Below, in pieces: positions 2,905 to 60,260 of a DNA stretch of 64,000 nt; within the stretch, counting starts at the first letter, position 1; each line of letters opens with the position of its first letter. Both the position numbers and the translations under genes were made by a program. Source of the DNA: Ginglymostoma cirratum. Taxonomy: Eukaryota. The stretch covers positions 19,068,097-19,132,096 of the forward strand of contig JAHRHZ010000274.1 of the NCBI GenBank assembly GCA_024137785.1. The letters run 5' to 3'. The notes below the pieces were generated by a model that had not been told where the DNA came from, ran no database searches, and worked only from the letters and a program-made list of their open reading frames with translations.

Positions 2905-4795
2905 TAAATGTAGGAGCAGAAGTGGGCCATTTAGTCCAAAAAGCCTGCTCTGCATGCAATAAGGTCATGATTAATCTGATAATATTCAACTTTGCCTTCC
3001 TGCCTTTTCCCCATAACCCTTGATTCCCTTATTAATTAAAAATCTGTCTACCTCAGCCTAGTTTGCTAACAATCCAAAATCTACAACAGCTTGTGGTGAA
3101 GGATTCCAGCAGATTCCACCCTCTGAGAGAAGAAATTCCTCCTGATCTCTGTCTTAAATGGGCAATCCATTGCTCTGAGACTATCTGGCCCTGGTCGTGC
3201 CCTCAAGGGAAACAACCTCTCAGCATCTATCCTGTCAAGCTCAATAGGAATCAGAAATATTTCAATAAGGTTGTTTCTCACACCTCTGAACTCTAAAGAG
3301 TGTAGGCCCAACTTGCTCAACGTTTCTTCATAAGAAAATCCCTCCATACTTACAATCAACTTAGTGAACCCTCTTGGAACTGTCACCAATACCAATATGC
3401 CCATTTCTGATGAAGGGTTTAGGCCCGAAACGTCAAGTTTTCCTGCTCCTATGATGCTGCTTGACCTGCTGTGTTCATCCAGCCCCATGCTTGTTATCTC
3501 GGATTCTCCAGCATCTGCAGTACCTTTTATCTCTGTCTTTCTATAGATACTGTTAGTAGATTCTAGGTGTGTCTAACTTGTGCCTTCTAAGGTTTTAGCA
3601 AGAATTTCCTATTTTGATCTTCATTGCCTTTAAAATAAAGGCCAACATTTTATATGTCTTCCCTTTACCTGATGAACTTGTATATTAGCCTTTTGTGATT
3701 TGTTTTCAAGGACACACAAGTCCCTATGTGCTGTTTGCTGTCTATTTCTATTTAAATAATGTTCAGTTTCTTTATTCTTAGTAAGGTCATAACATCACAT
3801 TTCCCCTCATTATATTTGATCTGCCAGGACTTTTCCCACTCACAACTTTCTATAGCCATCTGTAGACTCTTTGCGTAATCCTCGCTTCTTGCCTTCCCAC
3901 CGATTTTTGCAAAATCTGCAAATTATCAATAGTATATATTTTTCCCTCATCCAAATCATTAATATATATTGAAAATAACTGTGACGCCATCACTGACCCA
4001 CGTGGTACGCCACTGGTCACAGGTTGCCATCCTGAAGATGACCCTGAATATCCCAAATCTCTGTCTTTTATTAGTTAGTCAATCCCTCTGTGCATGCTGA
4101 CATACTACCTCAAACGCCATTGGTTTGTTTTATTCAGCAGCCTAATGTATGGTACCTCATCAAATGTCTTTTGCAAATCCAAGTACATTTATACTGGTTG
4201 CCTTTATCTATTTTGCTTCTAATAATTCTAATCAATTTGTCGAACCTGATTTCTCCATTATGAAGCCATGCTGACTCTGCTTAATTATATTATGAATTTA
4301 TAAATGTTCCACTGTTATGTTCTTTATCATATACTCTAACATTTTCCCAATAACTGGTCTATTGTTACCTGTTTTGTTCTCTCCTTACCTTTCTGAACAG
4401 AGTGATACATAGGCAGTTTTCCACTCTGAGACTTTACCAGAGTCTAAGGCTCCTGAAAGATTACTACCTATATATCCATTATCCCTGTAGCTACTTCCTT
4501 TGATATCGTGGGATGCAACTTTTCAGGTCAAGGGGACTTATCAGCCTTTTACCACATTAGCTTCCTTGTGCTTTTTCTCTGGTGATACTTGCTATATTCA
4601 TTTCCTTTCCACCTTTTGCCTCTTGATTATTTAGTATTTTTGGAATACTATTAGCGTCTTCTACTAGATGACTTAACACAAAATATTTATTCAACTCCTC
4701 TGCTATTTCCTGATTCCCAATTACTATTTCCCCAGTCTCATTCGTTAAGGGGCCTTTGTTCACTTTAACCTCTCTCTTCTATTTTACAAGTTTAA
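2905..4795 (-). mobile_element. 5'-truncated CR1 LINE (RT and 3' UTR), interrupted by a PLE fragment at 3400-3535
   Basis: Translations SSSGWQPVTSGVPRGSV..QLFSIYINDLDEG, SYEETLSKLGLHSLEFR..TEIRRNFFSQRV and GPLTNETGEIVIGNQEIAEELNKYF. Confidence 0.9.
3400..3535 (+). mobile_element. PLE family B pLTR fragment with hammerhead core (3403-3438), nested in CR1
   Basis: Identical to 183-279 over 97 bp, then continues into the TCTCGGATTCTCCAGCATCTGCAG tail. Confidence 0.85.
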
Positions 4796-5339
4796 AGAAG
4801 CTCTTGACCATATTTTACTAATTTTGTACAATTTACAAATTACTGACATTTTCTATTTAGGTATCTCTTTTTAAAGTTCTTTTACCTTATAAAGATGTCA
4901 AACACATTTAGCAGATGCAAATTTGTTTTACTTCAGGAGAGGAGCGAATGAAATCTAAATTTAAGTATCTAAAAAAAACTCTTTGCTTTCACAATCACAC
5001 ATCTTCCTTTTTCTTTTGTTTCTTGTCAATCGATACATTTTGCTGTGTCTGTCTCTGAAAGACCCAGTCCTGGAGTGTTTCCTTGTTCAAGAAGATGCTT
5101 TGGAGTCTGAGCTTGTGATATCTATACTACCAAATCCACAACAGAAAAGGAACATAGGTTTTGTGAGATGCATCTATCTAATCATGGGGACATCTAATAT
5201 ATCAACATTTGTTTAAAGCAGAGTTTCAAGTGCCTGAATAAAAATGGGAATATGTTGCAGAAGAATTCAATGTATTTTTTTAACACTGTTATGGATTCTG
5301 ATATCCCAAGCAGTTAAAGTAATGTGAAAAAAAAAATGA

Positions 5340-5860
5340 AGTACCTCAGATGCTGGAAATCAAAAGCAAAAACGAAAACAGAAATTTCTGGAGAAGCTCA
5401 GCAGGTCTGGCAGCATCTGTGGAGAGAAAGTAGAGTCAGTGTTTAGGGTCCAGTGACTCTTCTTCAGGACATGTTGTTTCACCTATAAATAGAAACATTT
5501 CCTGAAATAAAAAAAATGAACTTGCTGGAAATACTCAGCATATCTCATCACATACCTGTGGAGAGAGAAAAGCTGTTAACTTTTCAGATCAATGTTTTTT
5601 TTATCAGTAGTGGAAAAGTTGGAGGTGTAATAAAAACAGAAGAGTGTTTAAGAAACTCAGCGCGTCTGACAGCTTAGAGAGTGAAACAGAGTTAATGTTT
5701 CAAGTCCAACATGCCTCTACTGAAGAAAACAGTCATATTGGACTTGAAACTTTAACTCTGTTTCTCTCTCCACAGATGGTGCCAGATCTGCTGACTTTCT
5801 TCAGCATTTTCTCTTTTTATTTCAGATCTCCAGCATACGCAGTATTTTGGCTTTATTTTA
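5340..5860. mobile_element. Cluster of old short PLE pLTR-derived repeats, including a fold-back copy at ~5632-5850
   Basis: Repeated CAGATGCTGG/CTCAGCAGGTCTGGCAGCATCTGTGGAGAG arms and a relic core CTGAAGA..AGTC..GACTTGAAAC. Confidence 0.7.
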
Positions 5861-12140: not shown

Positions 12141-12846
12141 GATAACAAGGTGTAGAGCTGGATGAACACAGCAGGCCAAGCAGCATCAGAGGAGCAGGAA
12201 GGCTGACATTTCGGGCCTAGACCCTTCTTCAGAAATGGGGGAGGGGAAGGGGGTTCTGAAAGAAACAGGGAGAGACGGGGAGGCAGATAGAAGATGGATA
12301 GAGGAGAAGATAGGTGGAGAGGAGACCGGTTCATATTCCGCTTGGGAACCCTGCAGCCCAATGGTATCAATGTGGACTTCACAAGCTTCAAAATCTCCCC
12401 TCCCCCACCGCTTCCCAAAAACAGCCCAGCTCATCCCCGCCTCCCTAACCTGTCCATCCTCCCACCTATCCCGTCCTCCCACCACAAGCCCCAGCCCCCT
12501 CTCCTACCTACTAACCTCATCCCGCCCCCTTGACCTGTCCGTCCTCCCTGGACTGACCTATCTCCTCCCTACCGCCCCACTTACACTCACCTTTACTGGC
12601 TCCATCCCCGCCTCTTTGACCAGTCTGTCTCCTCTCCACCTATCTTCTCCTCTATCCATCTTCTATCCACCTCCCCATCTCTCCCTATTTATTTCAGAAC
12701 CCGCTTCCCCTCCCCCATTTCTGACGAAGGGCCTAGGCCTGAAACGTCAGCCTTCCTGCTCCTCTGATGCTGCTTGGCCTCCTGTGTTCATCCAGCTCTA
12801 CACCTTGTTATCTCAGATTCTCCAGCATCTGCAGTTCCTACTATCT
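12141..12846 (+). mobile_element. 5'-truncated PLE (family B) with inverted 5' pLTR and 14-bp TSD
   Basis: TSD CTGTGTACATTAGG at 12127-12140 and 12847-12860. 12141-~12325 is the reverse complement of the 3' part. GIY-YIG C-terminus FIFRLGTLQPNGINVDFTSF. Hammerhead cores at 12205-12232 (-) and 12721-12748 (+). Confidence 0.92.
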
Positions 12847-16515: not shown

Positions 16516-18302
16516 AACAAGGTAAGAACTAGTGACAAAGCTTAACTGCAGCTGTTTTCTTGTCTTATCTCAGTCTTCTCTCACTTAGCGCTCATGCTGC
16601 TCACACAACATCTACTTATCTCCGGAGTGGGAACTTGATAGCTGCTTTGAGCAATAGCCTTCAGTGATTCAGAATAGACAATCAGATTTGATGGTTATTT
16701 ACCAACTTGGGGAAGAAGGTAAGCACAGGCTAACCCAGAACACTGCCTTAATCACAGAATTACAGAATGGTGCAGAAAGCAACCGATTGTGCCTGTACCA
16801 GCTCATTAAATAATGGTCATTATCTCATTAATGGGACGCAGCACTTGTCTGGATTTGATGAAAGATCAGCTTGATTGAACACATGAACAGGCTCAAGAGA
16901 CTCATTTTCTTCTCCCTTCTCCTATGTTAGAGCAGCTCAGGTATACCAGGATCCACCTGGTACATCTTATTATTTTCCAGGAGTTCCACCTACTGCAACA
17001 ATGTTGATATCTCCTGGCTCAGCATGCTTGGTACATTCTGGGTAGGTTCCCTGGATTCCACTGGGAGGTGCCACAGGAAGCCAGTAGAAGATGACCTGTT
17101 GAAATTGTTTAACTGCCAGCCTTGGGCGCTGAGGACAAGTTTTTTTTCTAAATTTCACTTTAGCATGAAGCGATTGATCGACCTGTGGTTAATTGTGTAG
17201 GGTGTGCTGTCCTTTAAACCTTAAACACCACTTCTGCTACCATAGCAACCCTGCATGCTAGCAAAGCACTTCAAATTTGATGCACCAGCACTTCCATGGC
17301 ACAAAGGAGACAAATTCCGTCATCTGCCTAGCATTGTTCCATCCCTCCCCATATATTAGCAGCACTGAAGCTTGTAAGGGGAATGAACTGACAGGGAGAA
17401 ATGAAGAGAAAGAAAAGCCATCATGCAGCCAGTAAATGCAATCTGCAAGCCGGTGATAAAGCAGCCTGGCACTAAGCCTCCTGTTTAATGGTCACTGAAA
17501 TGGAAATAGTGCTGAAGGAGGCCATTGGAGGAAGAGACCCCAGCCTGCCATTTCCACAGATCCGTGTTGGAAAGAGAGGAATGTGGCTTAGAGGGCATCA
17601 CTTTGATTTACTTTGTTATGCCAAGCCTATGACGTAAGAGCTTTTACAACAGATGGCACAGCCCTCTGTGCTGGCTCTCTGTCAAACTGGGTCCTTGGGT
17701 TCAGCTCGCTACTTCCATTGGCAAGGCTAGGTGCACATAGATTCGTAGCTGTGGTTGATGGCATTTTGGCAAATGCACAGCTTCCTGTTGATCCTCCTGA
17801 CACATTTTCTTTGATATAATCTGACTGAAATCATAATATTCTCTGATTGGGTGTTTCTACAAAAGCAAACCAGCATTGAGACCAGTCAGCCTTTTCTACT
17901 AGATAGTCCTACCATCCACTTTATTGTCACAGAAGGGTAATTTTCAGCTTTGTTGCCTATGTGTCAACCGAGAGAATAGAATTCCTGCCAATTGTAAAAT
18001 CCATCTCATTTTCATTCTGTTGAAATTAGTCAAGTTCTCCATAAAGCAGGAACTCCACTCAGTCATGTTATTATGTAGGGTTGAAACTGTCTCTCAGTAT
18101 CTTTGGAGATTAGAGTTTCTCAAGGCATCCATATCACCAGGTGCTCTTGATGTCTGTCTGCAGATGTGGGAGTATGGGTACAGTGGGCTGGTACAGAATA
18201 CTTCTGGAACAGCCTATCTTCCTTGACATCCTTCCAGTGATCTTATTTTTACTTCTCCAAAAACCACAAATTTATGAGGAAGACAAGTCCCATTAGGACA
18301 TT

Positions 18303-18534
18303 GAGATAACAAGGCATAGAGCTGGATGAACACAGCAGGCCAAGCAGCATCAGAGGAGCAGGAAAGCTGACGTTTCAGGCCTAGACCCTTCTTCAGAAAA
18401 TCTCAGAAAATCTGAAGAAGGGTCGAGGCCCGAAACGTCAGCTTTCCTGCTCTTCTGACGCTGCTTGGCCTGCTGTGTTCATCCAGCTCTATACCTTGTT
18501 ATCTCAGATTCTCTAGCATCTGCAGTTCCTGCTA
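18303..18534. mobile_element. Fold-back mini-PLE (family B): two inverted 95-bp pLTR arms with a 15-bp TSD
   Basis: Arms at 18303-18397 and 18411-18505. TSD TCCCATTAGGACATT at 18288-18302 and 18535-18549. Confidence 0.92.
18412..18439 (+). ncRNA. Minimal hammerhead core, with a mirror copy on the minus strand at 18369-18396
   Basis: CTGAAGA-A-GGGTCGAGGCCC-GAAACGTC. Confidence 0.65.
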
Positions 18535-20505
18535 TCCCATTAGGACATTAATGTCCCAGATCCATTTTTCATTAAAATGTTGTGTTGAGTGAGTTACAAC
18601 AAGATGTTGGGAAGTCAATAACCACAGGCTGAATTCCTATAGGCCCATGATAGCAGGCTTGGAAGGGACATCTCAATCTGGGAAATGGGGAGAGCTATGA
18701 TGGAACAGTTCCACAAGCATTCCTGCTAATAAGAACTTTTCCGGTGAGTGGAAGAGGACCCTAATCACCCACCGCACCATAGAGTTAGGAAACCAAAGAA
18801 ATTGACCGCGGACTCATCAAATCCGATTTTGTGATTAATGCTCAGGTTTTATTACCAGTTTAGCCCCATGTCCTCACTCCATCAAACAGTTATTGCCATC
18901 TCCAAGAAGCACACCTCCCCAGATTCATGCTGCCATCAGCATTGAAAGATTCATTGCACCTAAACAGGAAAGACCTTACTCTTGGAACAAATGATGCAAC
19001 CAGAGTTTTCTCCCCCTCAGTTACAAAGGAACTAGTAGCATTGTTCTGTATAATTTTGGGAAATTCATGCATCTGAAGATGCTCAGGTTGAGGCTCCCTT
19101 GCAATCCCTGATCTTCCATGACAGTGCCTTCCTCTCAGGGTGGGCTGTCAGACCTCTGATGTGGCCAACAAGAATGCCACCTCCTTTAAAATTGTGCCAA
19201 TGAACTCCAGCATCCTTCAGCTTACCACCCAATTGATAGCAACAAATGCAATGAGAATATCTTCACCTGGTGTATTAATTCCTTAATATTTTGTAGCTCC
19301 TGCTTAAAGTTGAAGGCAAATATGGGTTAGATTTAAGTTAAATATTCATCTTTAAAGGGCTGTGTGATGCATGGTTCTCAACAGACATTAAATAAAAGAT
19401 TTATCCTATGATTACATTTGTGGAGCATTGCCACAAGTAGTATTTACCATTTTAATGGCAAAACTGGTGTAAGTTTACAACTATAATTTTAATGCAGGTT
19501 GATATTATTAAGATCAATGAAATGTGGATTTACTTATATGAAATACTTGTAGATTTGTGTCCGTATAAATTTAAATAACATGATACAAATAATAACGTGA
19601 TATAAATTGTACCAACTCACATATTTTATTTCATATAACCAAAGAGTTGAGACATGCAAGGAAAATGCTATCGTTGACCAAAAGATTTAGAATTAAATAA
19701 ACATGATTCCAGACCTCTGTGTAAATCAATTTAATGCTCGACAAATTAGAATACAAATTATGTATTTTGCATAATATTTTCAATTTAATTTCGCTCACAA
19801 CATAATTAACTTAACTTAAATATAAATAGTAAAAATTATTAATCTTATAAACAATCTGTTCATAACCTAAGCATAATACATCTCAATAACAACATTCATT
19901 TTAGATCCTACTGGCCTGTAGCTTAGTAATTGCATCCTTGATAATTAATAGAGGTTTTCAGAAATATTTACAAGAATATTTTAAAAGACTATTCTGAGTG
20001 AAGAACTTGTAAATATTAGGAAAAATGTTTACATTTGTTTTCAAATCTATTTTTGAGAATTTATCAAAAGGTGTGTAAAAAGTTTTCCATTAATAATAAT
20101 CTTGAATAGTATAAGTCTACAGCAACATGAGGCTCAATTTGTTAACATTTTGAGGGTGAATCTCACCCCAGATTCAACGATGGAAATATTTCTTACTCAG
20201 TCTTTCATTCTTGCAAGTGTTTCTAATGTAATCATTTAGCCTGTCAGGAAAAACCTTTGCTCATTGGACCTTAATCCTTAATGTTTTATTTTCCCCTTAC
20301 CCTGTGGAAACACAAATCTGTATGGAGTCATTTGCTGTTCCATACTAATTTACATAAAGTTACCATTGTTCACACCAATCAGAATTAAGGTGTAACTTAT
20401 ATTATGATAGAATTAAGTGTGAGCAAATAAATGTGTTTACACAATATGATGCTGTCCTGAGTATATGGCAAGAAGAAACAAAAGAAAAAAGTCATCATTA
20501 GAAAA

Positions 20506-20604
20506 AGATTTCCCGAAGAAGGGTCCAGATCCGAAACGTCAGCTTTCCTGCTCCTCTGATGCTGCTTGGCCTGCTGTGTTCATCCAGCTCTAGACCTTGT
20601 TATC
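20506..20604 (+). mobile_element. Single-arm PLE family B insertion with 14-bp TSD
   Basis: TSD TCATCATTAGAAAA at 20492-20505 and 20605-20618. Hammerhead core is mutated (CCGAAGA). Confidence 0.85.
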
Positions 20605-21977
20605 TCATCATTAGAAAAGCCAAGATCTCAGCAGGTAAAGTTTATTATTATCCCAGCAAAGGAATAGAGGTGAGCAACTATTACTTTTATGAGCATTACA
20701 ACTTAGGCTGTGATGAAAGGTTAATTAGCTTGATTTCTTTGAGAAAGGGAAGGCAACAGGGAAGATTTCCATTCACCTGAAAGAGGTGCATCAGGGTTAT
20801 GCATTTCCCAAATCTATGGTCAGGACGCCTAAACAATTTATGAGATTTGGTTCTCACTTCCTTTCGGCTGGTGAGGTGTAGTCACCAAAATGGGCACTTC
20901 AGTGCAGCTTACTGCTTTCCGATGGCACAAATCAGCTAGCTGCGTTACAGACTGAGCCTGTTCCAGAGAACAGCCAATCCCAATAGGACTGAATCAGTAT
21001 AAACAGGTTAACCCCATGAAGATCTTAGGCATCTTTGGAAAATAAGGGAATCCTTCAATGAGCTGCAAGGTACATATAGGGATTAGCTTCATAATGTCTG
21101 GTACAATTAGATTGTATAAAGCAGACTCATTTGAACATAAAAATTGTAATCAATAAGCCTTCCAATTTTTCTAAAGGATCAGATTTAAGTGAGCGTCTGG
21201 TTTTCAATTTTCAAAGTTTTTTTATACTTCTGCATTTTATTTTAGATTTTGTCAATGTTTCTGAATGCTTAAAAAAACTGATATAATTTTGGAATAGTTA
21301 ATGGGGGGTGAATTTTAATTAAATAATAACTTTTTTATCAACTCGTCAAAAGAAAAATAGACCAGTAATGCCCGGCTGCTAAAATCACCTGAAAACAAGG
21401 AATAGTATTCACACTCTTCCAACAGGAGAGCAACAGAGAGGGGAGGGAACACAAAACAGCTTGTCTAGTATCAGCTTTCACAAGAGCTTAGGGAGCCACA
21501 AGGCATTGAAACACAAGTGCAGACTCCTATGGCAGTCTAGAAAAGGTCAAGTTTATGATCTGGTCTGATTTGGATGGACCCAAAACACAGTATTTGATTT
21601 GATGCAGGATGACAGGGAACAGGGAGGTTATCATTGTGTTTGAAGCACACTTGTTTCATTTACTATTATGCCATTAACCATCTCAAACTTTTGGCACACC
21701 TAATGACAGCCACAGACAACTACCTCGACAGGTTTCCTGTAGACACCTCATAAAATTGAAATGTTAAACACATGTTAAACATTCCTCTGCTATTAACTGT
21801 GACCACGATTTCTAGCCTCATATATTTTATGATTCTAAAAACAGAAATCTAAAAAAGCAGAAAACGCAGATTAACATTCAGTTATCACTCTTCAAACATA
21901 ATTCAGTTAAAAGTTTTAAATGACAAAACTGAAATCTTTGCTTTTAATTGGATTGATAACCAGAACCCCAGTATTCT

Positions 21978-32440: not shown

Positions 32441-33436
32441 TGGTCTGTTTAAGGTTTGGTGGTTGTTTGAAGGTGAGAAGTGGAGGTGTAGGGAAGATCT
32501 TGGCAAGGTGTTCACCATCATCAATAATGTGTTGAAGGCTGTGAAGAACGTGGCGTAGTTTCTCCGCTCCCAGGAAGTAGTGGACGATGAAGGGCTCCCT
32601 ATCAGACGTATCCCATATCTGTCTTCTGACGAGGTCATTACGGTTTTTCGCTGTGGCACATCAGAACTGGCAATCGATGAGCTGAGCATCGTATCCTGTT
32701 CCTATGAGGGCGTCCTTCAACACCTTCAGGTATCTGTCTCATTCCTCCTCATCCAAACAAATTCTGTGTATGCATAGGGTTTGTCTGAAGGGGAAGCTAG
32801 AGAGTGCAGCCTCATGAGGTTATCCTTGGGCTTGCGGTAGAATGAGGTACGTAGGTGTGCCTGACTGATGGAGATGCGTGTGTCCAAGAATGAGACTGAT
32901 TCTAAAGAGTAATCTAAGATAACTTTGATGGTGGGGTGAAACTTGCAGATATTGCTATGTAATTGTTTCAGTGATTCCTCGCCATGAGTCCAAAGGAAGA
33001 AAATGTCTTCAATGTATCTGGTGTATAGCATTGGTCGGAGGCTCTGTGCAGCAAAGACGTCTTGTGCGAACGTGTACACGAAAATGTTTTGTGTACTGGG
33101 GAGCGAATCTGATCCCCATGGCTGTTCCATGCGTCTGGATGAAGAACTGGTTGTTGAAGGTGAAGATGTTATGGCTGAGGATAAAGTGGATGAGTTGTAG
33201 GATGGCGTATGGAAATTGGCAGTTGTTGGTATTGAGTAGAGAGGCTGTTGCAGTGATGCCAGTCGTCGTGGGGAATGCTGTTGTAGAGTGTCAAAATATC
33301 CATTGTAACGAGGAATGTTCCTGGTTCGATTGGTCCGTGGGAGCTGAGTTTCTGTAAGAAATCTGTAGTGTCGCGACAGAAGCTGGGGGTTCCCTGTACA
33401 ATGGATTTCAAGATGTCCTCGACATAGCCCTCGACT
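32441..33436 (-). mobile_element. PLE family A, inverted RT segment
   Basis: VQGTPSFCRDTTDFLQKL..FLVTMDILTLYNSIPHDD..LYTRYIEDIFFLWTHGEESL; equivalent to 44422-45436. Confidence 0.92.
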
Positions 33437-34447
33437 TGACAACCTCTGCAAGACATGTCAGATCTTCGGCATGGACACTACCATCACACGTGGGAACACC
33501 ACCCACCACATACCTGGCAGATACTTATGTGACTCAGCCAACATCGTCTATCTCAGACGCTGCAGGCAAGGATGCTCCGAGCCATGGTATATTGGCAAAA
33601 CAGTACAGACGCGATGACAACAGACGAATGGATACTGCGCAACAATTGCCAGACAGGAATGTTGCCTCCGAGTGGTCAGCGGTCAAGGATATTCAGCCTC
33701 GGGTCTTTGGGTAAACTTCCTCCAAGGTGGACTTAGGGATACACAACGCAGAATTGCTGAGCTGATAGGCATGTTTAGTACCCATGAAGATAGCCTCAAC
33801 CGGGATCTTGGATTGATGTCACACTACAGGTGACCTTCCCCACACTANNNNNNNNNNNNNNNNNNNNNNNNNNNNNNNNNNNNNNNNNNNNNNNNNNNNN
33901 NNNNNNNNNNNNNNNNNNNNNNNNNNNNNNNNNNNNNNNNNNNNNNNNNNNNNNNNNNNNNNNNNNNNNNNNNNNNNNNNNNNNNNNNNNNNNNNNNTGC
34001 AGATACAGTCTATTTAGTTCATAAAGCGACAGTCAGTCAATGTTACGTTTTATAAAATCCTACTTTAGAAATAAAACCAGTCTGGCTCCAAACCAAAACA
34101 TAAACAGATTCTAAACAAAGGCTCGCACCTATCTTGCATTGTCTGACGTAAAATGTCACCTCTTATTTACATTGACAAAACCTGTAGTTCTCTCAGGACA
34201 GTGGCTTCAAAGGGATTCGGGGATTTACGAAACATATTAATCAATTACAACCTTCTAACTGATTAAAGATTTAACAGCCTCTTAGTACGTCCTCATCAGT
34301 GGTGTGACACTTTGATCTTATAAATTCTGTGTCTGATACTACCTCTCTCACTAACACCTGGAGAAGGAGCAAGACTCCGAAAGCTTGTGTTTTCAAATAA
34401 ACCTGTTGGACTATAACCTGGTGCCATGTGATTTCTGACCTTGTACA
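33437..34447 (+). mobile_element. PLE family A, GIY-YIG segment and 3' pLTR (same insertion as 32441-33436)
   Basis: NLCKTCQIF..CDSANIVYL..WYIGKT; equivalent to 45489 onward. Hammerhead-like AACAC-CTGGAGA-AGGAG..CTCC-GAAAGCTT-GTGTT at ~34353-34391. Confidence 0.9.
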
Positions 34448-37400
34448 CCGAAGGAAAGGCCTCACCAGCTTCTGTGTTACATGATCATAAGAGCAAATTA
34501 AAATGCAGCAATGGACCAATGTGAACATCAGTGGGTAAGTAACAAGGCTGATTTTAATAGCCTATAGCCAATTTCTTGCAGGCAGTAAGAGTTAAAATAA
34601 TTCCTACAAAATTTTACTTTAGCAAATCGTGTGACTTTTTACACCGACATTACATTGCAGAGCTTACTTCCAGAACTAAATTTCTGATGAAAGCGGCTAC
34701 CAAGGATATTTGTACTCAGGTTACTTTCTGCCCTGGGAGCACATATTTGCTGATTTATCCTTAACATAATAAACTTTTCCGACATTTAGCTAAACTTCAA
34801 TGGTGCTTCCTTCTATACTACCAAGCATTAAAAACTCAAAGCTGGTTGGCCCAAGGAAACATTTATTTTTAAATAAAAGCAAAGTTCTGAAGACAAGTCA
34901 TACTAGACTCAAAAGGACTCTGTTTCTCTCTCCACTGATGGTACCAGACTGGCTGAGTTTCTCTAGCACTTTGTGTTTGTTTCAATCATTTCTTTCCTTA
35001 ACATGTTGTTATATAGAATTAATTTCATACATTATTATGTAGAAATAAAATTATGTTGTAAACACTTAGACAATAAACAATTTGAATTGTTTTACATTTA
35101 TATAATGGATTTGACATAAGATATACAAATTTAAGGAAATATTTCGTTTTGCAGCAGCGATAAGTGTGTATTGATGTATCAATGGATTGTTACGATGGAC
35201 ATCAATGCCGATTGATGAGACTTCAGGGCTTAATCATGCAGCTGAAGTTTGATGAAAGCTGGTGGTTTAATGACAATATGCTATTTCTTGCTTCAGCAAG
35301 CACTCTGGAATAGTCAGATCACTAATCCAAAAACGCTGAGGAAAAAGTGAAAGAGGCAAATAAGAAATGAGTCTGAAGGGCAGAAAAGATTGACAGATCA
35401 AAGCAAATAGGCACAAGATTAAAAAAATCCATTGGCTGAACTTGTGTCTCTTTGTCACCCTTTCAGGACTTTGTAAGTTTCTTTTCCATCAGCACTAAAG
35501 TGAGGCCATGTCGTGATGCACACGGGTTGAGAGTGCTAGCCCCTAGATGCATGTTGACACTGACAGCACTTGTGAGGGATGGACTGATGGATAGAAATCA
35601 CAATTTCTGACATGGTGACATGTTGTCAGGTTGGGTAGAAGCTGGATTTTTTTACCTAATGGAGTCAGCATTTAAGCAGTGCCCAGATTCGCTGGGACTC
35701 CCATTGCCCAGCTCTTAGCCGTGGACTCAGTACAGCATTTGCAGAGCGCAAGGAACAAATCAGGACCCGGTGTACAACAGTAAGCACTGAATAATGCCTG
35801 TAGCTAATAGACGTGCAGATGTAGTTTGCAGCTTTATTTTTGGGAAATTCCAGTAGGAAACAAAATGATGTCATTTGAAAAACTAAACATGTGGTATAAA
35901 GATATCATTTAGAATAAACTCCTCAAATGAAAAAGATTCCCAAGTCAAAGTGCTGACCTGGTTCACCTCGATTAGAGACTAATCACACTCATAATGTTAT
36001 TCCATTGAGTGGGATTTGAGACTGGTTGCAAGGTACTGTTGGACTTACAAAGGAAATGAGTTAATCTCCCTGTAAGTCTGAAAACCTCAGCATTGCAATC
36101 AATGAACACTGTTGGGGATTAAGATGGTTTTGCAATATAACTGCAGTATTAATGCACGGAATCAGCTCATCAGGTGTGCCCGGGGCCAATTTCTCCCCAG
36201 AAAATAGAATCTCTCATCAAAAGTAAGAGTTTGGCTGCAGAGGTTGAAGGTGAAGAGGAAAATTGGCTGATGGCAGTCCAATTGCAATAATTGGAGGGAG
36301 GTTACCATTGTTTCCCAGTTAGGAACTTTTCTCACTCGCCAGGGAGGCAGAAAAAGACTGGGGAGAAGGCAAGTTGATGCCTTGAAGTAACCATTAATTG
36401 ATAACTTCAGGGCCTTAGTTGCTGGTGAGTCATGAAAACCCCCCATTAACGTTCTTGCACTTAATTGTTAAACTGGCAAGAATGCATGTGTTTCTCTCAA
36501 AGACAAACATGCTCAATTATTACTCCTTCTTGTCACTTCCAGGGAGGGGAGTACTCTGCCCATTGTTACTAAGACTATTAAGTGACAAAGATTGTACACT
36601 TGTCACCTTCAAATTCCAGAGCAATTCTTTAAATTTCCCTACCTGAAAGTAGGTGACATTATCAGTTGGAGATCTTACTCCAACATTAACCCTTCCAGAA
36701 CCATTATTTTATGCAATACAAATCAGGAAGTAAATCTTTTGAGCATCATGAGCTTTAATTTTAATTTTCAAATATTGGATTAAATGATGATGATATGATT
36801 AACATAGAAACAAAAATATCATGATCAAACTTTATTTTTCTTACAATCATTGGGACCAATTGCCTGACATTTTGACATACTGAGGGTATTCCAGATGCTG
36901 TCTCTTGCATGCATACCCCAATTGTCAATAAATCAGAAAGTGCTAATTGAGATATATATAGTGCTTAAAAAGCAAAGTTTTGTTTAAGTCTTGTGTACAT
37001 TCATCTCTTGCCATTAAGCTTCTAATAAGTCTTTGACCTCAATTATTCTCTGTCTCTTAACAACATCATGGCCACCAAAGGTTTTCTGAATGGAAATAAA
37101 CCAAGTTTGAGACACATGGAAGAAGAGAAGGATCAACAGAAAAGTGCCAAGCAGGTCCAGCTGTTTTAAAGGGTTTTGTGCCCATTCACCAGTACACTCA
37201 TGTAATTGCTTCTGAAAACTGTTTGTATTGTGGTTATTCCTATTTCTGAAACAAAACGGAAGATTAAGCCGCCATTAAGATATAAAAATGTCTTTCATAA
37301 TTCTGTTTGCTCCCTCATAAACATCCCAATCACATGATGGTATGTTTTCAATGGTATTGCATGAATAAAGGAATGAGTGATCAACAGCTAGTGTAGCCTG

Positions 37401-37734
37401 TTTAGCTGTATCTCCATCATGATACTTCCATCCATGGCTGTAGCCAACGTTGCATCTGTCTGGTGAAAATGACAGGGAACTGTAAACAAGATTCTTGATC
37501 AAGAAACGGTTGGATTTAGTGATCAGATGTCTGCTACTAGAACATTTGCTAACTTCCATTGAGCATACAACCAGTATAACCAATAACAGCAGGAATACAG
37601 TCTCCAACCTACTTCTTTGGAGAGTTGTTGAAATACCAAACTATGGGCAATTGGCAAAGAAATCCACCCTTGCCCAATCATCTTATGTAGCTCTATTTTC
37701 ATTTCACAGTTAATAAATGAGGAATTGATTATTC

Positions 37735-37922
37735 AGAAAATGAAAACCGCTGGAGATCACAGCAGGTCAGACAGCATCCATGGAGAGAAAGCAAGCAGAG
37801 CTGATGAAGAGTCATCTAGAAATGTTAGCTTGCTTTCTCTCCACAGATGCTGCCTGACCCATTGTGATCTCCAGCATAGTTTGTTTCACTTCAGATTCCA
37901 ACACCTGCAGTAATTTGCTCCT
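37735..37922. mobile_element. Old fold-back pLTR-derived element
   Basis: Inverted arms GCTGGAGATCACAGCAGGTCAG..GGAGAGAAAGCAAGC / GCTTGCTTTCTCTCC..CTGACC..TGTGATCTCCAGC around CTGATGAAGAGTCATCTAGAAATGTT. Confidence 0.75.
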
Positions 37923-40900
37923 ATAATCAATTGTTTGGTTGCTCTGTTCTATTGAAGGGCATTAATAAATCAGCATTGTAGTTAAAACAATCTCACAGCC
38001 TTCATGTTTATGTTGCCGGTGTCCATCCACAAATTATCATATCTCAAAGTTTTCTATACTTGTCTCAATGTAATCTCACAGATCTCAGGATCCAGCACTG
38101 AAATAGCCTTGTTACAATACTTTCCATGGGCCATGTATGAGGGAGATAAATTGTATCTGCTCTGGGCTCCATTAGAGACTGCCAGGCCAGATTGGGACCT
38201 GGTGCATTCAGATGCTGAAATGGTTCCCTTATCCACCATTGCTTTACTCACAGACTGACACCAGTATTATTCTTCAGTCTCCCAAGAAATATCTTAATCT
38301 ATTGAGGGGGCTGGGCAATCAGACATCATAGGTCTTTCGTTGACTTCTTTCTCTCCTACTTTTTAAAATATTCTTCTCTTTATGCCTCATGTTTCGTGTA
38401 TTTTTCTCTGCAGCCATCTACAGCTACATCTGTTCCACACTGAGACTGTCGTCAATCCAGAAAAACATGTGAAGAGCTCATTCCAAACAAGTCCTGACAT
38501 TTGCAGTTCCACGATTGCCCAACAATGTCACTCACAGGCACACTCACTGGCAAGCTGTGAAACCTAATTTAAAAGACTTTCTTGCTGCAAACAATTATAA
38601 ATTTGTGACATATGGCCACCGTGGTTGTGACCATAATCTGCTCTAAGTCACAGACTCACACTGTGTGCAAAGTTGATGTAGTTCCGGCAATATGCTAAAA
38701 TGCTACTGGAATCATAGCACAGTGCAGAAACCCAAGGTGACTATGCCATTTGAGCTTGTGAATTTCTCTCTTGACATAAATTGTCTCATCCTAGGTTTAT
38801 ATCTAGCATGGTACTCATAATTCTATTTTAAAAGAATTTTTGTGAGACAATTTCCATTCCAATTCAGTCTATGGAATTTCTCAAGTCTAGTGGTAATACT
38901 CAATGAATAAGAAAGGAAGCAGAAATTGGGATGGACAATCTACATGTTATTCCCATAACCAAATACAAACTACAGCAGGAGCTTGCACCACTTTTGTTCA
39001 GTACATTATTCAATTGTTTCTCAAACATAATACTTGTCCAAAACTCAGAAAATTGATTTCGTGGTAGATATTTAAGAGCAAATGGCTCGATCTTGGACAC
39101 TGATGTTCAGGATACAAAGGGTTACATTCTGGAATGAAGTGCTGTGAAGAGTTCTGCATTTTGATTTTTCACCATTGCTTTCAAACGTTTGAATTTTCAA
39201 TTCATTCTACTTAATTACTGCAGCAAATGCGTACTCATTAATATGCAAAAATGCAAATAATGTTGTAATTAAGCAGCAAATCTCTAGAGGATTTTTCCAT
39301 TATAATATATTATTAGTTTGGAGAGAGCATGGCGATGCATACTGATGAATATTATTGAAGTTGAAGATTAAAAATATGAGCAATGTCCTGTCATCTTGAA
39401 GTATCCTTTTGACATTGTAGTGATTTCGAAGAATAAATTTGCATAAAAGACTAAATAACTAACAGGTTTTTCTGTTGAATTAATAATTTACAACAGTTAC
39501 ACGAGCAGTATGCTCCACAATTCAGCACAAACTATGGGAATATTGTTATTGATGTGCTGCAGCTCTTGGTAATATTAATTAATGCATTCAGAAAATGAGT
39601 TTTTACATTGGAGGATAAGGAAATGTTATTCGATGGAAGGTATCATTATTGTTCTAAATTATCCAGAAGATGCAGTGGTCTATGCTCTTGATGATGTGCA
39701 CTGCAGTACAAGTGGCCTCTCCTGTTTGCTCTTTGCAATCACACATGACAAGACCTAAGCATGACCTAAATAGATACATTAGAAACTAGCCAGAGAATTT
39801 CAGCCAATCAGATGTCGCTAAGCGCTCCACTGGATGATACCTACAAGCTGACAGAAGCATTACAAAACATTATGGTGTCCACATTTTGATAGCTTGCTGT
39901 CTTTGTAAAATGTTGCTCTTTGCAGGATCAAGAAAACATAAAACTATTCATCTCTGAGATAGGGCATGTCCACAGCAGCTGAAAGCACTGTAAATTCACC
40001 AATGTAGATTACAGTTGTAGAGAAACACAATCCCTTCTATTGCGTTGCGTGGTTTTGTTAGTTAACCCTCAGATCACTGCAGCAGCATCACTGCACCGAT
40101 CAGAAAATACAAAAAATGCCCTTTTTACTTTAATCAGCAAACATTGCAGACATAGTTTGATCAAATGGTTAACTCTGCTTTATAATATCAAACATTAGAA
40201 ATTTAGTGGATGTCAATCCTTACACAGGCAATGCCGCTAAAGTGTGGTCAGTCATCAAAATAGATCAGTCTGTACATAAACATTCAAAAGACAGTCATTA
40301 TCTCTGCAATAGTTTGCATTTGATTATTTTTAAATACAACATAAAGAGTATAAATATCTTTGTTCAGAAAATGGGGAAAATGTAGATCTTGCTGCCAGGG
40401 AGAGTGGCTGAGGCAAATATTCCAGCTGCTTTCAACCAAAGCATCCGAGGAAGAAGGGGAGTGAAGGTTAGATCAGTAGGACTGGCAGGACGGAGGAGAC
40501 TTGAGTAGGACATAAAATGCCTGATTGATTGGGCTGAATGGTCGGTTTCCATGCTGTATACTCTGTGTAATTCTCACTTTAACTCTGTCACACATTTCAA
40601 ATGATCTTTTAGATTAGTAATTCAAGATGACAAAGTTTGACATACCATTTCCATCAAGCTGTCTTTAGAAACCACGAAACACATATGATATCAAATGCTG
40701 CATTGCTATATGATTTAGACTTTAAGGGAGCCACAAGCAATACATGCCATCTCAGAATTTGTGGTATATTACAGGGTGTTAGATTGATAACTACCCTGCA
40801 CAGAAATGTATCATTCTGTTTTGTGGGTTGTAAGCTTTGCTCTTGAGTTGGTGTGCTCAATTCTCCCTGAAGCCTTGTAATAAATATGCTGTCATTATGT

Positions 40901-42340: not shown

Positions 42341-42498
42341 CATAGCTAAAACACAACACTGGCATCTACCCAAAAATGTGGAAACTTGCTCATCTATGTC
42401 CTGTCCAGAAAATGATGTGGAGTTGCTGATGTTGGACTGGAGTGGACAAGGTCAGAAATGACACAACACCAGGTTATAGTCCAACAGGTTTATTTGAA

Positions 42499-42537
42499 AA
42501 CACAAGCTTTCGGACCCTCAGTCCTTCTTCAGGTATT
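42499..42537 (-). ncRNA. Minimal hammerhead ribozyme with intact core (PLE family A)
   Basis: AAUAC-CUGAAGA-A-GGAC-UGAGG-GUCC-GAAAGCUU-GUGUU: 5-bp stem I, 4-bp stem II, palindromic AAGCUU stem III and CUU triplet. Confidence 0.75.
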
Positions 42538-43280
42538 AGTGAAAGAGGTAGTATCAGACACAGAATTTATAAGTAAAGGATCAAAGATTCACACACCATT
42601 GATGAGGAAGTACTGAACAAACCTAAGAAGCTTTTAAACCTTTAATTAGTCAGAAGGTTGTAATTGATTAATATATATGTGTAAATCCCCGAATTCCTTT
42701 CAAGTCACAATCCTGAAAGAACTAAAGGTTTTATCAGTGTAAAGAAGAGGTGACATTTTAAGTCAGACAATGCATGTTAAGTGTGAGGCCTTGTTTAGAA
42801 TCTGTTTGTGCTTTAGTTTGGAGTCAGACTGGTTGTATTTCTAAAGTGAGAATTTATAAAACGCCATATCGACTGACTGTCTATAAATCGTGTGCTTTTT
42901 GAACAAAATAANNNNNNNNNNNNNNNNNNNNNNNNNNNNNNNNNNNNNNNNNNNNNNNNNNNNNNNNNNNNNNNNNNNNNNNNNNNNNNNNNNNNNNNNN
43001 NNNNNNNNNNNNNNNNNNNNNNNNNNNNNNNNNNNNNNNNNNNNNNNNNNNNNNNNNNNNNNNNNNNNNNNNNNNNNNNNNNNNNNNNNNNNNNNNNNNN
43101 NNNNNNNNNNNNNNNNNNNNGAGAGTGTGTNNNNNNNNNNNNNNNNNNNNNNNNNNNNNNNNNNNNNNNNNNNNNNNNNNNNNNNNNNNNNNNNNNNNNN
43201 NNNNNNNNNNNNNNNNNNNNNNNNNNNNNNNNNNNNNNNNNNNNNNNNNNNNNNNNNNNNNNNNNNNNNNNNNNNNNNNN

Positions 43281-45904
43281 ACTGCCAGCTCAAAGTGGAG
43301 AGGATCTCCAAGCAGATCACAAAAAATCATCAAGTTTCTACAGAAATGCAAGAAAGCACAAAATATCCAAAAGCACTACAGATCACGAACCCACTCAAGC
43401 CGACCTACAACACTGATTACGCTGAGAGACTTTGTTGTTGCACCTCTCACAAGCTCCTCAATCATCTCATACACCAACTCTACAGCAAGTGCCATAACCT
43501 TGAAATCGAGATGGAGTCCATATTCTCAGCTTACGCTCCAGATACAGCAGCACAGTAGTGAGACACTGCCAAACAGACACGGCAATGGAACTACATCACC
43601 TACATGCACAGTAAGGACAAGAAACTGGAGAAACTTGGCATCATCACCGGCAATAACCAAGTCTCCCCTGGTACCACAGTTGAAGGTGGTACCACCACAG
43701 GAAAATCCTTCGTCAACTTATCTGACCACACCCTTCAACTGGACGAGATCAAAGTTCTCAGCCGAGGACTCAATTTATGCCCCACCACCAAAATGGACAC
43801 CACTGGACTTGCAGCAGACACAGAGGAATTCATCAGACAAATGAGACTCCAGGACTTCTTCCCAGATGTCAGCAGACAGCCCAATGAGACAACCAGCGAA
43901 TCGGATCAGTCGACAGTGAGATCCATGGGGGAGCGGGCAAAGAAGGAGTTGAACAGGACCCCTCTGGAGGGCCATTGCCCTGGGCTTTCACAGGTTTGCT
44001 TAACCCATCAGAGAATTTGGGAATGCCAGATTTATCAGCTGCACTCACAAAGTAGTGTAAAATTCACTCAGGCACAACGCAACGCCATCCATGCTCTCAT
44101 GACCAATCGCAACATCGTCATCAAACTAGCAGACAAAAGAGGAGCCATTGCCGTACAGAGTAGAACAGTCTACTGTAAGGAAGTGTACTGTTAGCTGAAC
44201 AACCAGGAACACTACAGACAACTATCTGCCGATCCAACCAAAGAATACACCCGTCAACTGAACAGACTGGTCAAGATTTTTGATCAAGACCTTCAGAGTA
44301 CCCTACACACTCTTATCCCATGTACTTCCCAGACTTCTGCTGCTTTCCAAAAATACACAAAGCCAACACACCTGGACGTCCCATCATATCAGGCAATGGG
44401 ACCCTGTGTGAGAACCTCTCTGGATAGGCCGAGGGCATCTTAAAACCTATTGAACAGGGAACCTCCCATCTTCTGTGATGACACGGCAGATTCCTTATAG
44501 AAACCCAACACCCACAGACCAGTCAAACCAGGAATATTCTTCGTTACAATGGATATTTTGACACTCTACACAAGCATCCTCCATGACGATGGCATCACCG
44601 CAACAGCCTCTGCACTCAATACCAACAACTGGCAATTTCCATACGTCATCCTACAACTCACCAGATTCATCCTCAACCACAACATCTTCACCTTCGACAA
44701 CCAGTTCTTCATCTAGACATATGGAACAGCCATAGGGGTTAGATTCGCTCCCCAGTCTGCCAACATTTTCATGTACAGCTTCGAACAAGACTTCTTTGCT
44801 ACACAGAGCCTCCAATCAATGCTATACACCAGGTACATTGAAGATATTTTCTTCCTTTGGACCCATGGCGAGGAATCACTGAAACAACTATATAGCGATA
44901 TCAGCAAGTTTTATCCCACCGTCACACTTACAATGGACTATTCTTTAGAATCATTCTCATTCTTGTACACACGCATCTCCATCAGGCTCGGACACCTCAG
45001 CGCATCACTGTACCTCAAGCCTACACATAACCTCACGATGCTGCACTTCTCTAGTTTCAACCCTAAACATATTAAAACAGCCATCCCCTACAGACAAGCC
45101 CTACGCATACACAGAATCTGTTCAGACAAGGAGGAAAGAGGCGGACTCCTGAAGGTGTTGAAAGATGCCTTCATAGGAACAGGATATGATGCTCAACTCA
45201 TCGATCATCAACTCTGACATGCCACAGCGAAAAACCGTAATGACCTCCTCAAAAGACTGACACAGGATAATCCAATAGGGTGCCCTTTGTTGTCCAGTAG
45301 TTCCCAGGAGCGGAGAAACTACGCCATGTCCTTCGCAGCCTTCAACGCATTATCGATGATGATGAGCACCTAGCCAAGATCTTCCCCTTGCCTTCACTTT
45401 TTGCCTTCACATAACCACCAAACCTTAAACAGATCATTGTTTGCAGGAAAATACTCAGCCTTCAGGACAACATCGCCCACAACTGTCATGGTAACCTCTG
45501 CAAGACATGTCAGATCTTCGGCATAGACACTGCCATCACACATGGGAATACCACCCACCATGTGCACGGCAGATACTCATGTGACTCGGCCAATGTTATC
45601 TATTCTCATATGCTGTAGGCAAGAATACCTCAACTCGTGGTATATTGGTGAAATCATTCAGACACCACGACAACGGATGAATGGATACCATGCAACAATT
45701 GCCAGACAGGAATGTTCCCTCCCAGTGGGGGAACATTTCAGCGGTCAAGGACATTCGGCCTCGGATCTTTGGGTAAACATCCTCCAAGGCAGACTTCGGG
45801 ATACACAACAACACAGAGTTGCTGAACAGAGGCTGATAGCCAAGTTCAGTATCCATGAGGATGGCCTCAACCAGGATCTTGGGTTCATGTTGCACTACAG
45901 GTGA
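43281..45904 (+). pseudogene. Disrupted PLE ORF: N-terminal domain, reverse transcriptase, Cys-rich linker and GIY-YIG endonuclease
   Basis: FVNLSDHTL..VLSRGLNLCPT, NIVIKLADKRGAI, FPKIHKANTPGRPIISG, RYIEDIFFLW, AIPYRQALRIHRICS, CHGNLCKTCQI, WYIGE..RQRMNGYH..VGEHFS..AEQRLIAKF..GLNQD. Multiple stops and frameshifts. Confidence 0.95.
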
Positions 45905-45921
45905 CGCCACTAAACTATACA

Positions 45922-45923
<2 letters not shown>

Positions 45924-45971
<48 letters not shown>
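45924..45971 (+). repeat. (CA)n microsatellite at the start of the PLE 3' UTR
   Basis: Seen directly. The N gaps at 33848-33997 and 42912-43280 fall at the equivalent position in the other family A copies. Confidence 0.95.
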
Positions 45972-45973
<2 letters not shown>

Positions 45974-46067
45974 TATGTGAATCTATGAGGTGAATTTGTA
46001 TTTGCGTATACATTTTATTTTGTTCAAAAAGAACACAATTTATAGGCAGTCAATATGGCATTTTATG

Positions 46068-46170
46068 AACAACAAAAACAGAAGTTGCTGGAAAAACTCA
46101 GCAAACCTGGCAGCATCTGTGAAGAAAAAATCAGAGTTAACATTTCAGATCCGGTGACCCTTCCTCAGAC
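46068..46170 (-). mobile_element. Short pLTR-derived repeat nested in the family A pLTR
   Basis: Absent from the homologous positions near 34055 and 42850. Confidence 0.75.
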
Positions 46171-46439
46171 TGCCTACTTTAGAAATGAAACCAGTCTGAC
46201 TCCAAATGAAAACACAAATAGATTCTAAACAAGGCCTCAAACTTAACTTGCATTGTCTGACCTAAAATGTCACCACTTCCTTACATTGATAAAACCTTTA
46301 GTTCTCTCAGGAGAGTGACTTCAAAGGAATTCATGGATTTACATATGCATATCTATAAATTACAACCTTCTAACTGATTAAAGACTTAACAGTGTTTTAG
46401 GTTTGTTTAGTACATCCCCATCAGTGGTGTGGCCCTTTG

Positions 46440-46808
46440 GGAAGGTGATGGCCTAGTGGTGCTACCTGGACTGTTAATCTTGAGACTCTGATAATGTTCT
46501 GGGAGCCTGCGTTGGAATCCCACCACTGCAGATGGTGGAATTTGAATTCAATAAATATCTGGAATTAAGAATCTTTGATGACTATGAATCCATTGCTGAT
46601 TGTCAGGAAAATCCCAATTGGTTCACTAATGTCCTTCATGGAAGGAAACTGCCATCCTTACCTGGTCTGGCCTACATGTGACTCCAGACCCACAGCAATG
46701 TGGTTGACTCTGAACTGCCCTCTGGGTAATTAGGGACAAGCAATAAATGCTGCCTAAGTAGCGATGCCGTCGTCCCATGAATGAATAAAAATGCATGAAT
46801 AAAAAAAA
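46440..46808 (+). mobile_element. tRNA-derived SINE nested in the family A pLTR
   Basis: TGGCCTAGTGG A-box, GTTGGAATCCC B-box-like motif, A-rich tail, flanked by CCCTTTG / CCCTTG. Confidence 0.85.
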
Positions 46809-47129
46809 CCCTTGATCTTTTACTTATAAATTCTGTGTCAGATACTACCTCTCTCACTAACACCTGAAGAAGGACTGAGGCTCCAAAAGCTTGTTGTTTC
46901 AAATAAACCTGTTGGACTATAACCTGGTTTCGTGTGATTTCTGACCCTGTCCAGAAAATGCGTAACAAATCCAATCCAGCCAATTAGCATCAGTCTACTC
47001 TCAAACATCACAAAGTGATATTTGGTGCTGGTGACAATACTATCAAGCCGCACCTATGCAGCAATAACCTACTCTCCAATGCTCAGCTAGGTTACTAACA
47101 GGGCTCTTCTAAATCAACCCTCTGTTAAT

Positions 47130-58279: not shown

Positions 58280-58740
58280 AGGAAACAGAAACATAGTAGT
58301 AACATGGAATGCTCTATTTAGGGGAATAGACGCTGTTCTCTGCAGTAAACACCAGATCCCAAAGGTTGTACAATCTGAAAGAACTACAGATGCTGTAAAT
58401 CAGAAGCAAAAGCAGAAATTGCGTGAAAAGCTCAGCAGGTCTGGCAGCATCTGTGAAGAGAAATCAGAGCCAACTGTTCTATGGAAGGGTCACTAGACCT
58501 GAAACATTAACTCTGATTTCTCTCCACAGATACTGCTAGACCTGCTGAGCTTTTCCAGCAATTTCTGTTTTTGTCCCAAAGATTGCGTTGCCTACCTGTT
58601 TCTGAGGTAAAGGATATCTCTTCTGGGCTGGAGAAGAACTTGAAGTAGGAATGGAGGTATCCAGTTACCATGATGAATATGAATATCAACCACATAGGTA
58701 GGTCTAGTAAAGAGATTCTACTGAAGGACCATGAGAAACT
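58280..58740 (+). pseudogene. CR1 ORF1 SGNH-esterase relic, split by a fold-back element
   Basis: NIVVTWNALFRGIDAVLCS..|RCLPVSEVKDISSGLEKNL..YPVTMMNMNINHIG, compared with VVVGDSIVRG..CLPGA.V.D..PVVVVHVGTNDIG. Confidence 0.65.
58369..58573. mobile_element. Fold-back pLTR-derived element with 12-bp TSD
   Basis: TSD TCCCAAAG(G/A)TTG at 58357-58368 and 58574-58585. Inverted arms surround GGAAGGGTCACTAGACCTGAAACATT. Confidence 0.8.
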
Positions 58741-60095: not shown

Positions 60096-60260
60096 AGTCT
60101 TTTGTAAATGATGCAGTGGATCTCCTAAATTTTACACTCTACTTACATCTCAAGTATGACAACTCATTGACAAGGATGGAACTAATCTTCCCACCAATAA
60201 CTAGCCCATAGTTTAAATATTGCCTTCTTCAGAACACTGGAAAGTTATCTGACCTTTCTA

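Follow-up and report, generated by a model that had tools for sequence, protein, structure and literature searches.

Introduction

The closest described systems are insertions of Penelope-like elements (PLEs), retrotransposons for which an inverted copy, a tail, a target-site duplication (TSD) and head-to-head palindromes have been described (PMC8557442, PMC3846280). In Schistosoma, minimal hammerheads occur as opposite-strand pairs 100-700 bp apart, which have been ascribed to truncated PLEs, and minimal PLE hammerheads are given there as inactive as monomers, with a same-strand partner being needed (PMC4209133, available text). For Poseidon of Anolis carolinensis it has been reported that both strands are cut and extended in vitro, that two internal RT starts define the tail, and that the template RNA must extend into the ORF past the sites where RT starts (PMC11167929, available text). 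How the pseudo-LTRs, tandems and inversions of PLEs originate is stated to be unsolved in PMC8557442, PMC2377424 and PMC11167929.

We analysed a stretch of 64,000 nucleotides of Ginglymostoma cirratum DNA, here called the window, which holds a small fold-back insertion at 18303..18534. Its layout, with inverted 5'-truncated PLE ends, a one-sided tail and a TSD, is already known for PLEs, and the element is very probably a mini insertion of a Neptune-type PLE that arose once and is most likely inert. Taken by itself, it is an unremarkable remnant of a retrotransposon family that is abundant.

The insertion at 18303..18534

The 232-bp insertion is built around two inverted arms of 96 nt, 18302-18397 and 18411-18506, which are 95% complementary, and it is enclosed by a perfect 15-bp TSD, whose left copy (18288..18302, + strand) is a 100% direct repeat of the right copy (18535..18549, + strand). 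In these respects the first-pass annotation of the window was correct, as it was in reporting a 10-bp tandem duplication where the arms join: TCAGAAAATC stands there twice, at 18393-18402 and 18403-18412, the repeat as a whole occupying 18393..18412 of the + strand. It had also taken the insertion to consist only of two inverted arms, which overlooks an unpaired tail of ~28 nt (18507-18534) on the right side alone; the next 2 nt overlap the TSD.

Positions in the PLE are counted here from C3 of the hammerhead CUGA (= 0), with cleavage, were it to occur, falling between +27 and +28. Aligned to natural long copies, the tail-less arm (18303..18399, - strand) spans -3 to about +93 and lies antisense on the top strand, and the tailed arm (18411..18506, + strand) spans -1 to about +94 and is sense on the top strand. 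The one-sided tail (18507..18534, + strand) matches the family tail from +95 to about +123.

The parent element

Within the 64-kb window the arm has 11 matches, and the genome holds 57,429 exact matches to a 23-nt motif of the long copies. The same PLE family is represented by a longer insertion at 12141..12846 (no strand assigned) with a 14-bp TSD, whose inverted arm extends to -94 and whose tailed arm extends to -391; the latter reaches the end of an ORF and links the short arms to a coding parent. Used as a query, 12141-12846 retrieved copies of up to 2 kb, and translation of one natural copy (L102) gave an RT with the YIDD motif followed by a GIY-YIG endonuclease. The parent translation (P0001) contains a CX4CxxC linker and two Cys between the GIY and YIG halves; a CX2-5CxxC linker with two Cys inside GIY-YIG is named as the mark of Neptune and Nematis PLEs in the available text of PMC8557442. 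To judge from its sequence, the parent is probably a Neptune-type EN+ PLE, the linker and Cys marks being common to Nematis as well. Atlas neighbours of the parent protein were RVT_1/GIY-YIG/HTH_animal at 0.95. Pfam gave 0 matches on two parent ORF pieces at E 0.01, and at a loose cut RVT_1 at E 0.09 on a partial ORF and nothing for L095. Downstream, arm and tail lead into the 5' part of this ORF, which has an ATG at +167, and the unit measures about 3.56 kb. Since the arm lies both after the ORF end and before the ORF start, it is pseudo-LTR end and ORF leader at once.

A PLE insertion is recognised by an adjacent inverted 5'-truncated copy, a one-sided tail and a TSD, all of which the element has. 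Many copies with the same interior and symmetric ends, as would mark a MITE or self-propagating family, were not found; the junctions vary, the tail is one-sided and the parent is an RT element. Nor were the direct tandem units with a type I hammerhead that mark a non-LTR retrozyme, the element being an inverted pair with no direct unit repeat. The proposal made from the sequence, that the palindrome is a retrotransposition product rather than a MITE, is supported. For annotation, such palindromes belong to PLE ends and not to MITEs or retrozymes.

Other PLE insertions in the window

Two single arms listed by the first-pass annotation are both real. The one at 3400..3535 (+ strand) is tailed and starts at -7, that is 7 nt above the core, with no TSD found; the one at 20506..20607 (+ strand) is tail-less and starts at -4 with one extra G, and has a 14-bp TSD and a mutated core. 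Three further loci had been described as older elements of the same geometry. All three are inverted pairs, as claimed, but each retains one recognisable core; the second arm ends inside or below the core, and the pairs belong to other, older PLE families. The pair at 58369..58573 has 63-nt arms, a 12-bp TSD and one degenerate core, that at 37735..37922 has 48-nt arms, one core (37801, + strand) and no TSD that we could find, and the decayed pair at 5632..5850 has one core (5720, + strand) and likewise no TSD found; none of the three is assigned to a strand. A perfect 10-bp inverted pair, 37723-37732 and 37923-37932, flanks 37735-37922 instead of a direct TSD.

Two other observations concern repeats in the window. 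Positions 183-279 and 3400-3496 are 100% identical over 97 bp, in direct orientation and 3.2 kb apart, both being members of a young subfamily of which copies at zero distance occur in other places. Another element contributes large repeats, inverted as well as direct (about 1 kb at 81%), at 32441-34448 and 42442-46953.

Hammerhead cores and possible roles of the transcript

Each strand of the element carries a minimal hammerhead core, CUGAAGA...GAAAC GUC, in which the boxes CUGANGA and GAAA-N-NUH are both present, with C3 at 18412 (+) and 18396 (-). Two cores had been correctly recognised from the sequence; that they would be functional is not what the structure predictions suggest. In the top-strand core (18412..18439, + strand; cleavage would follow 18439) helix I is only 1 bp, and in the bottom-strand core (18369..18396, - strand) it is 2 bp and the G10.1-C11.1 pair is changed to G-U, the shortness of helix I being due to truncation of the arms. 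The 232-nt element folds at -184.2 kcal/mol (z = -22), a stability equalled in 0/200 shuffles. In the folded transcript the pair probability of helix II is about 5e-16 for the top core and about 1e-17 for the bottom core, both below 1e-15, and the energy penalty for opening the cores is 36-37 kcal/mol (36 for the top core). Because helix I is 1-2 bp and the 95-bp hairpin buries the cores, both are predicted to be inactive. Formation of helices I and II and a same-strand partner for helix III, as a hammerhead requires, were not found, the partner here lying on the opposite strand, and an Rfam search of the element at the gathering score gave 0 matches.

A transcript of this locus, if one is made, could serve through its hairpin as a substrate for editing or Dicer, like any inverted repeat. 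The 22 runs considered for RNA were all contigs, most of them presumed to be RNA by guess; four of them, compared with a parent copy, yielded neither starts nor ends, and the A>G excess that they showed, being relative to a single decayed copy, speaks neither for nor against editing. Pfam returned 0 matches for 8 of the window's 19 long frames, so that no host gene was identified.

The parent offers a separate observation. A read-through RNA covering -32..+5 (for example window 12689-12726) contains a 9-bp hairpin that pairs upstream sequence with the CUGAAG box. With the box so occupied, the 3' hammerhead copy would be off, and a transcript starting at -4 would be without the blocker. The upstream stretch of this hairpin also has, at about -24, the look of a 3' splice site. 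We also saw short direct tandems of hammerhead-bearing units, of about 160 and 300 nt and with recurring jump sites, which land at +153..+161 in L024, L152, L241 and L188 and at +295 in L134 and L142. Two same-strand minimal hammerheads in such tandems could form a dimeric ribozyme, which would be a possible route to retrozymes.

Breakpoints of the arms

The inner ends of PLE arms were mapped relative to the core. The sample was drawn as 140 segments, each 10 kb long and placed at round coordinates, with later batches set near readable ones; 33 were all N, leaving 1.01 Mb usable. It contained 128 arms, of which 24 abut N and 3 abut an edge, so that 101 were scored for inner ends. The outer (3') ends were bimodal, with 43/128 at +89..+97 and 67/128 at +124..+133, in agreement with two internal RT starts as in the Anolis PLE. 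Inner ends at -9..-1 were found in 36 of the 101 scorable arms (34 without two duplicates, L058/L130 and L136), giving an end density of 0.06 per nt in the peak vs 0.001-0.003 above -20 and 0.003-0.009 at +10..+49 (p 1e-22). A uniform distribution of breakpoints is thereby refuted, and the proposal of the first-pass annotation that cDNAs repeatedly end near the ribozyme is upheld. The ribozyme cut as the maker of these ends is not supported: the peak is at -9..-1, the cleavage site (+27..+31) holds 4/87 arm ends, and there is no excess at +28. Genome-wide, 9,335 matches start at -4, 5,061 at -5 and 336 at +28, under filters that differ.

The upstream sequence shared by L058 and L130 was considered as a subfamily and rejected; the two are instead a 4.3-kb duplicate of 99.9% identity, inverted and about 20 kb apart (L058:5684-10000 and L130:3854-8170).

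The ends at the peak show two further features. A T run of at least 4 occurs in 12/33 peak copies vs 1/29 long copies (p 0.0015), the parent run being 3 T in 27/29 long copies; among the first 100 listed symmetric junctions with filler, 56 have the three-U run copied as at least 4 (hand count). Where other element sequence stands before a peak arm in direct orientation, the jump lands at +83..+295 of the 3.56-kb unit in 7 of 8 unselected cases, which is near the RNA 5' end; there were 17 such direct jumps in all, and the 9 from loci chosen by an ORF-5' query were left out of this count. A few direct jumps follow A runs (L183, L258, L142).

A promoter-like site at the peak

Long copies of the family, in the majority of the 46 compared, have TATTTATTT at -35..-27 and CCATTT at -6..-1. 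In older families, where the upstream sequence is different, 8/11 long copies have a TATA-like box that starts at -35..-33 and 9/11 have their last A at -4, and 15/36 core-bearing copies match over at most 12 nt upstream; the TATA and initiator motifs, which are short, were identified by eye and by regex against a consensus. The usual core-promoter spacing has the TATA box about 31 nt above the initiator A. The peak at -9..-1 sits on an initiator-like A(-4), with a TATA-like box 31 nt above it in each of two PLE families, and is therefore a likely transcription start; a TATA and initiator-like pair has also been noted in rotifer pLTRs. With the peak as transcription start, the short arms would be run-off cDNAs. 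The template requirement of Anolis Poseidon was counted towards run-off at the RNA 5' end as well, since the 3' copy of an ordinary insertion is without the ORF sequence in question. We favour run-off at the RNA 5' end because the TATA-to-A spacing, the stutter, the jump landings and the Anolis template requirement agree in pointing to it. One point against it is that Drosophila Penelope has its start site about 120 nt above the hammerhead (PMC2377424, PMC4209133, both as available in part), compared with a candidate start here at -4.

A cap-derived G was considered as a sign of the RNA 5' end and rejected. G precedes the arm end in 40/100 and 43/100 of the first listed rows (hand counts; 25% expected), and the control site is also G-rich (56 G : 44 T), so that the comparison with the control (p 0.05; p 0.44 without rows explained by the other arm) leaves it as suggestive only and not above control.

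The rival explanation that survives best, while still unlikely, keeps the twin-primed insertion and takes the peak as a leaky RT stop, programmed by sequence or structure inside a longer RNA, rather than as the RNA 5' end. The stop might be caused by the U3 run, by a C-rich tract, or by a hairpin that folds again once the enzyme has passed and displaces the end of the cDNA. The parent hairpin, with 9 bp pairing -32..-24 with -3..+5, could by itself stop RT, and the stutter is likewise expected at a pause. Moreover, units that bear the ORF 5' end pass seamlessly through the peak in 8/19 cases, the same share as for all arms (27/65). Pass-through at this rate means that plain run-off needs strand transfer or read-through RNAs; its equality is accounted for just as well by a leaky stop as by read-through RNAs or by homologous strand transfer. 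However, the peak persists with its TATA-to-A spacing in older families that have neither the C tract nor the hairpin, and the local folds predicted for those families vary between copies. The jumps, which land in ORF 5' sequence, a few of them after A runs, also count against an RT stop.

Joining of the two arms

The reading that we prefer, at a probability of roughly 0.6, is that both nicks primed short cDNAs, which ran off the RNA 5' end at the start site, and that the cDNA ends were joined with filler. Staggered nicks 14-15 bp apart would be made at the target, a spacing suggested by the TSDs and by the Anolis PLE in vitro, and each nick would prime one short cDNA. RT would begin at two internal positions of the RNA, near +93 and near +128, leaving a tail on one side, and the cDNAs, made from the 5' copy of the start sites, would be 'strong-stop-like' in running off the RNA 5' end. 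Their ends would be joined with locally copied filler, either through slippage of the RT where its template ends or through end joining by polymerase theta, and the final product is predicted to be inert as a ribozyme and not to be copied onward.

Several features of comparable insertions bear on this reading. Among 30 look-alike loci, chosen by likeness to the query element, the TSD is 11-19 bp in 28, and 14-15 bp in 19 of these. The longer arm can be either one, as expected from two independent cDNAs. Arms of one insertion diverge by 0.076 vs 0.113 for random copies (21 pairs), and they share rare variants at 0.33 per same-insertion pair vs 0.05 per control pair, which is consistent with one source RNA for both arms. 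Fillers of at least 5 nt match local sequence over 7.4 nt vs 4.3 nt in shuffles (16 fillers, 36 junctions), and are pieced from local sequence in both orientations. In the element itself, the 10-bp duplication may be the last ten bases of the top-strand cDNA copied twice, with a 2-nt overlap with the right arm; on this reading the cDNA ends in 4 A, against 3 U in the parent, followed by a T and a C.

Telomeric fillers were also observed. Three TTAGGG repeats stand at a fold-back junction in L019 (about 1590-1620), and a GGTTAGGGT piece stands before a single arm in L152 (about 4850-4862); telomerase may have extended the free end during insertion.

Another way to obtain two inverted arms would be self-priming, in which one cDNA or antisense template snaps back and copies itself into the second arm, as has been proposed for rotifer PLE palindromes (PMC3846280, available text). 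Arms that share rare variants would be expected from it, the fillers often contain snap-back pieces a few nt long, and some junctions are perfect palindromes (L134). Self-copying would not be expected, however, to place the outer ends on two fixed start sites beside the TSD or to let either arm be the longer, and most junctions contain filler rather than a clean loop, which makes this explanation quite improbable.

Twin junctions and propagation

The first-pass annotation had raised the possibility of a propagating non-autonomous family, for which an identical junction at multiple loci would be telling. The junction of 18303..18534 occurs once in the 4.36-Gb assembly at up to 1 mismatch, with no copies elsewhere, and being unique it indicates that the element did not spread. 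Symmetric junctions with 8-30 nt of filler number about 2,340 in all, and among the ~55 listed nearly all are different. A few of these ~2,340 could still act as sources, and in principle a palindromic transcript retrotransposed by the PLE protein would make the fold-backs a non-autonomous family. The best case is the pair L005:1501-1754 and L010:1501-1754, which have an identical complex junction of 38 nt, different flanks, their own TSDs and 95% identity, with no N. There are just 2 such copies, however, 1 Mb apart, and ectopic gene conversion explains them as well as rare copying of a fold-back RNA does. Of the other twins, three exact pairs and one near-twin were checked, and in every case one member adjoins an N block; among them, one locus carries two different junctions inside one TSD and another shares its flank. 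With the element's own junction unique, roughly 55 listed loci nearly all different and most twin junctions adjoining 400-N blocks, we consider a self-propagating family very improbable.

Nested double fold-backs and twin junctions were considered as proof of self-propagation and rejected at those loci where an N block separates near-identical arms (L136, L280, L281, L284 and L286). Arms across N blocks differ by 0.02 vs 0.076 elsewhere. The 400-N blocks between near-identical arms are probably assembly gaps, and most twin junctions look like assembly borrowing; twin junctions beside such gaps are to be distrusted. Near-identical inverted arms flank 400-N blocks at window 60260-60868, at L136:6299-7072 and in L129, L162, L280, L284 and L286. 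At these blocks the junction is sometimes duplicated or borrowed from another locus, which looks like trouble in assembling palindromes.

That hammerhead cleavage makes the RNA 5' end where the cDNA stops, or that the element is a double ribozyme or retrozyme, is the least credible explanation and already largely refuted, for although the core boxes are intact on both strands and a few arms start exactly at +28/+29 (L107, L108), the peak lies 30 nt above the cut with no excess at the cut itself, the cores are buried in the fold, minimal PLE hammerheads have no activity as monomers and need a same-strand partner (PMC4209133, available text), and insertion in vitro did not need cleavage (PMC11167929, available text).

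Comparison with known systems

What appears to be new here is a peak on an initiator-like A, with stutter at that place and jumps that land near the ORF 5' end. We found no description, in the open-access literature, of a breakpoint peak at a TATA/initiator-like site or of a strong-stop model for PLEs. A wider model can be built on it, which we put forward tentatively, as possible but with the odds against it: in PLEs, RT would nearly always begin at the 5' copy of its start sites, giving a strong-stop cDNA of about 100-130 nt that ends at the capped RNA end above the hammerhead. This cDNA would then have three fates. Integrated, it would give mini fold-backs and single arms; jumping imprecisely, it would give short partial tandems; and transferred by homology to the 3' copy, it would allow the rest of the element to be copied. 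If run-off is general, PLEs would use retrovirus-like strong-stop cDNA and strand transfer. If the wider model is true, such strand transfer would supply the mechanism still missing for regeneration of the pseudo-LTR, and the stubs, of which the genome has tens of thousands, would be a fossil record of strong-stop cDNA. From the peak, the RNA 5' end and a short cDNA intermediate can be predicted to the exact base.

Retroviral minus-strand strong-stop DNA is a short cDNA that is begun internally and extended up to the 5' end of the RNA. The PLE model differs from it in having no tRNA primer and no integrase. In LINE-1 twin priming, two nicks prime on one RNA to give an inversion, with the second primer at variable internal sites, whereas the start sites here are fixed. 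Polymerase-theta insertions resemble the junctions in their direct-repeat and snap-back fillers of 5-30 nt with microhomology (PMC7454005, available text); the difference is that RT itself could have made the fillers here, the two being indistinguishable from sequence.

Non-LTR retrozymes are alike in being short, non-coding, hammerhead-bearing and PLE-derived. They are direct tandem repeats that give circular RNAs, whereas the element here is an inverted pair with a unique junction (PMC7229834; bioRxiv 10.64898/2026.07.22.740005, both as available in part). Closer is Anolis Poseidon, with both strands cut and extended, two RT starts, a hammerhead beside the ORF start and cleavage that is dispensable; it belongs to another clade, the template proposed for it is a multi-copy mRNA, and cDNA end points are not a subject of the available text (PMC11167929). 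Closest are insertions of EN+ Neptune-type PLEs, which share the head-to-head inverted 5'-truncated copy, the TSD, the one-sided tail of 30-40 bp and the minimal hammerhead in the pseudo-LTR, with parents that likewise combine RT, a Cys linker and GIY-YIG (PMC8557442, PMC3846280, available text). Compared with these, the element at 18303..18534 is reduced to about 100 nt per arm, with no ORF. Compared with the opposite-strand hammerhead pairs of Schistosoma, as far as the available text of PMC4209133 describes them, its cores are 15 nt apart and point outward, and its junctions are resolved per base.
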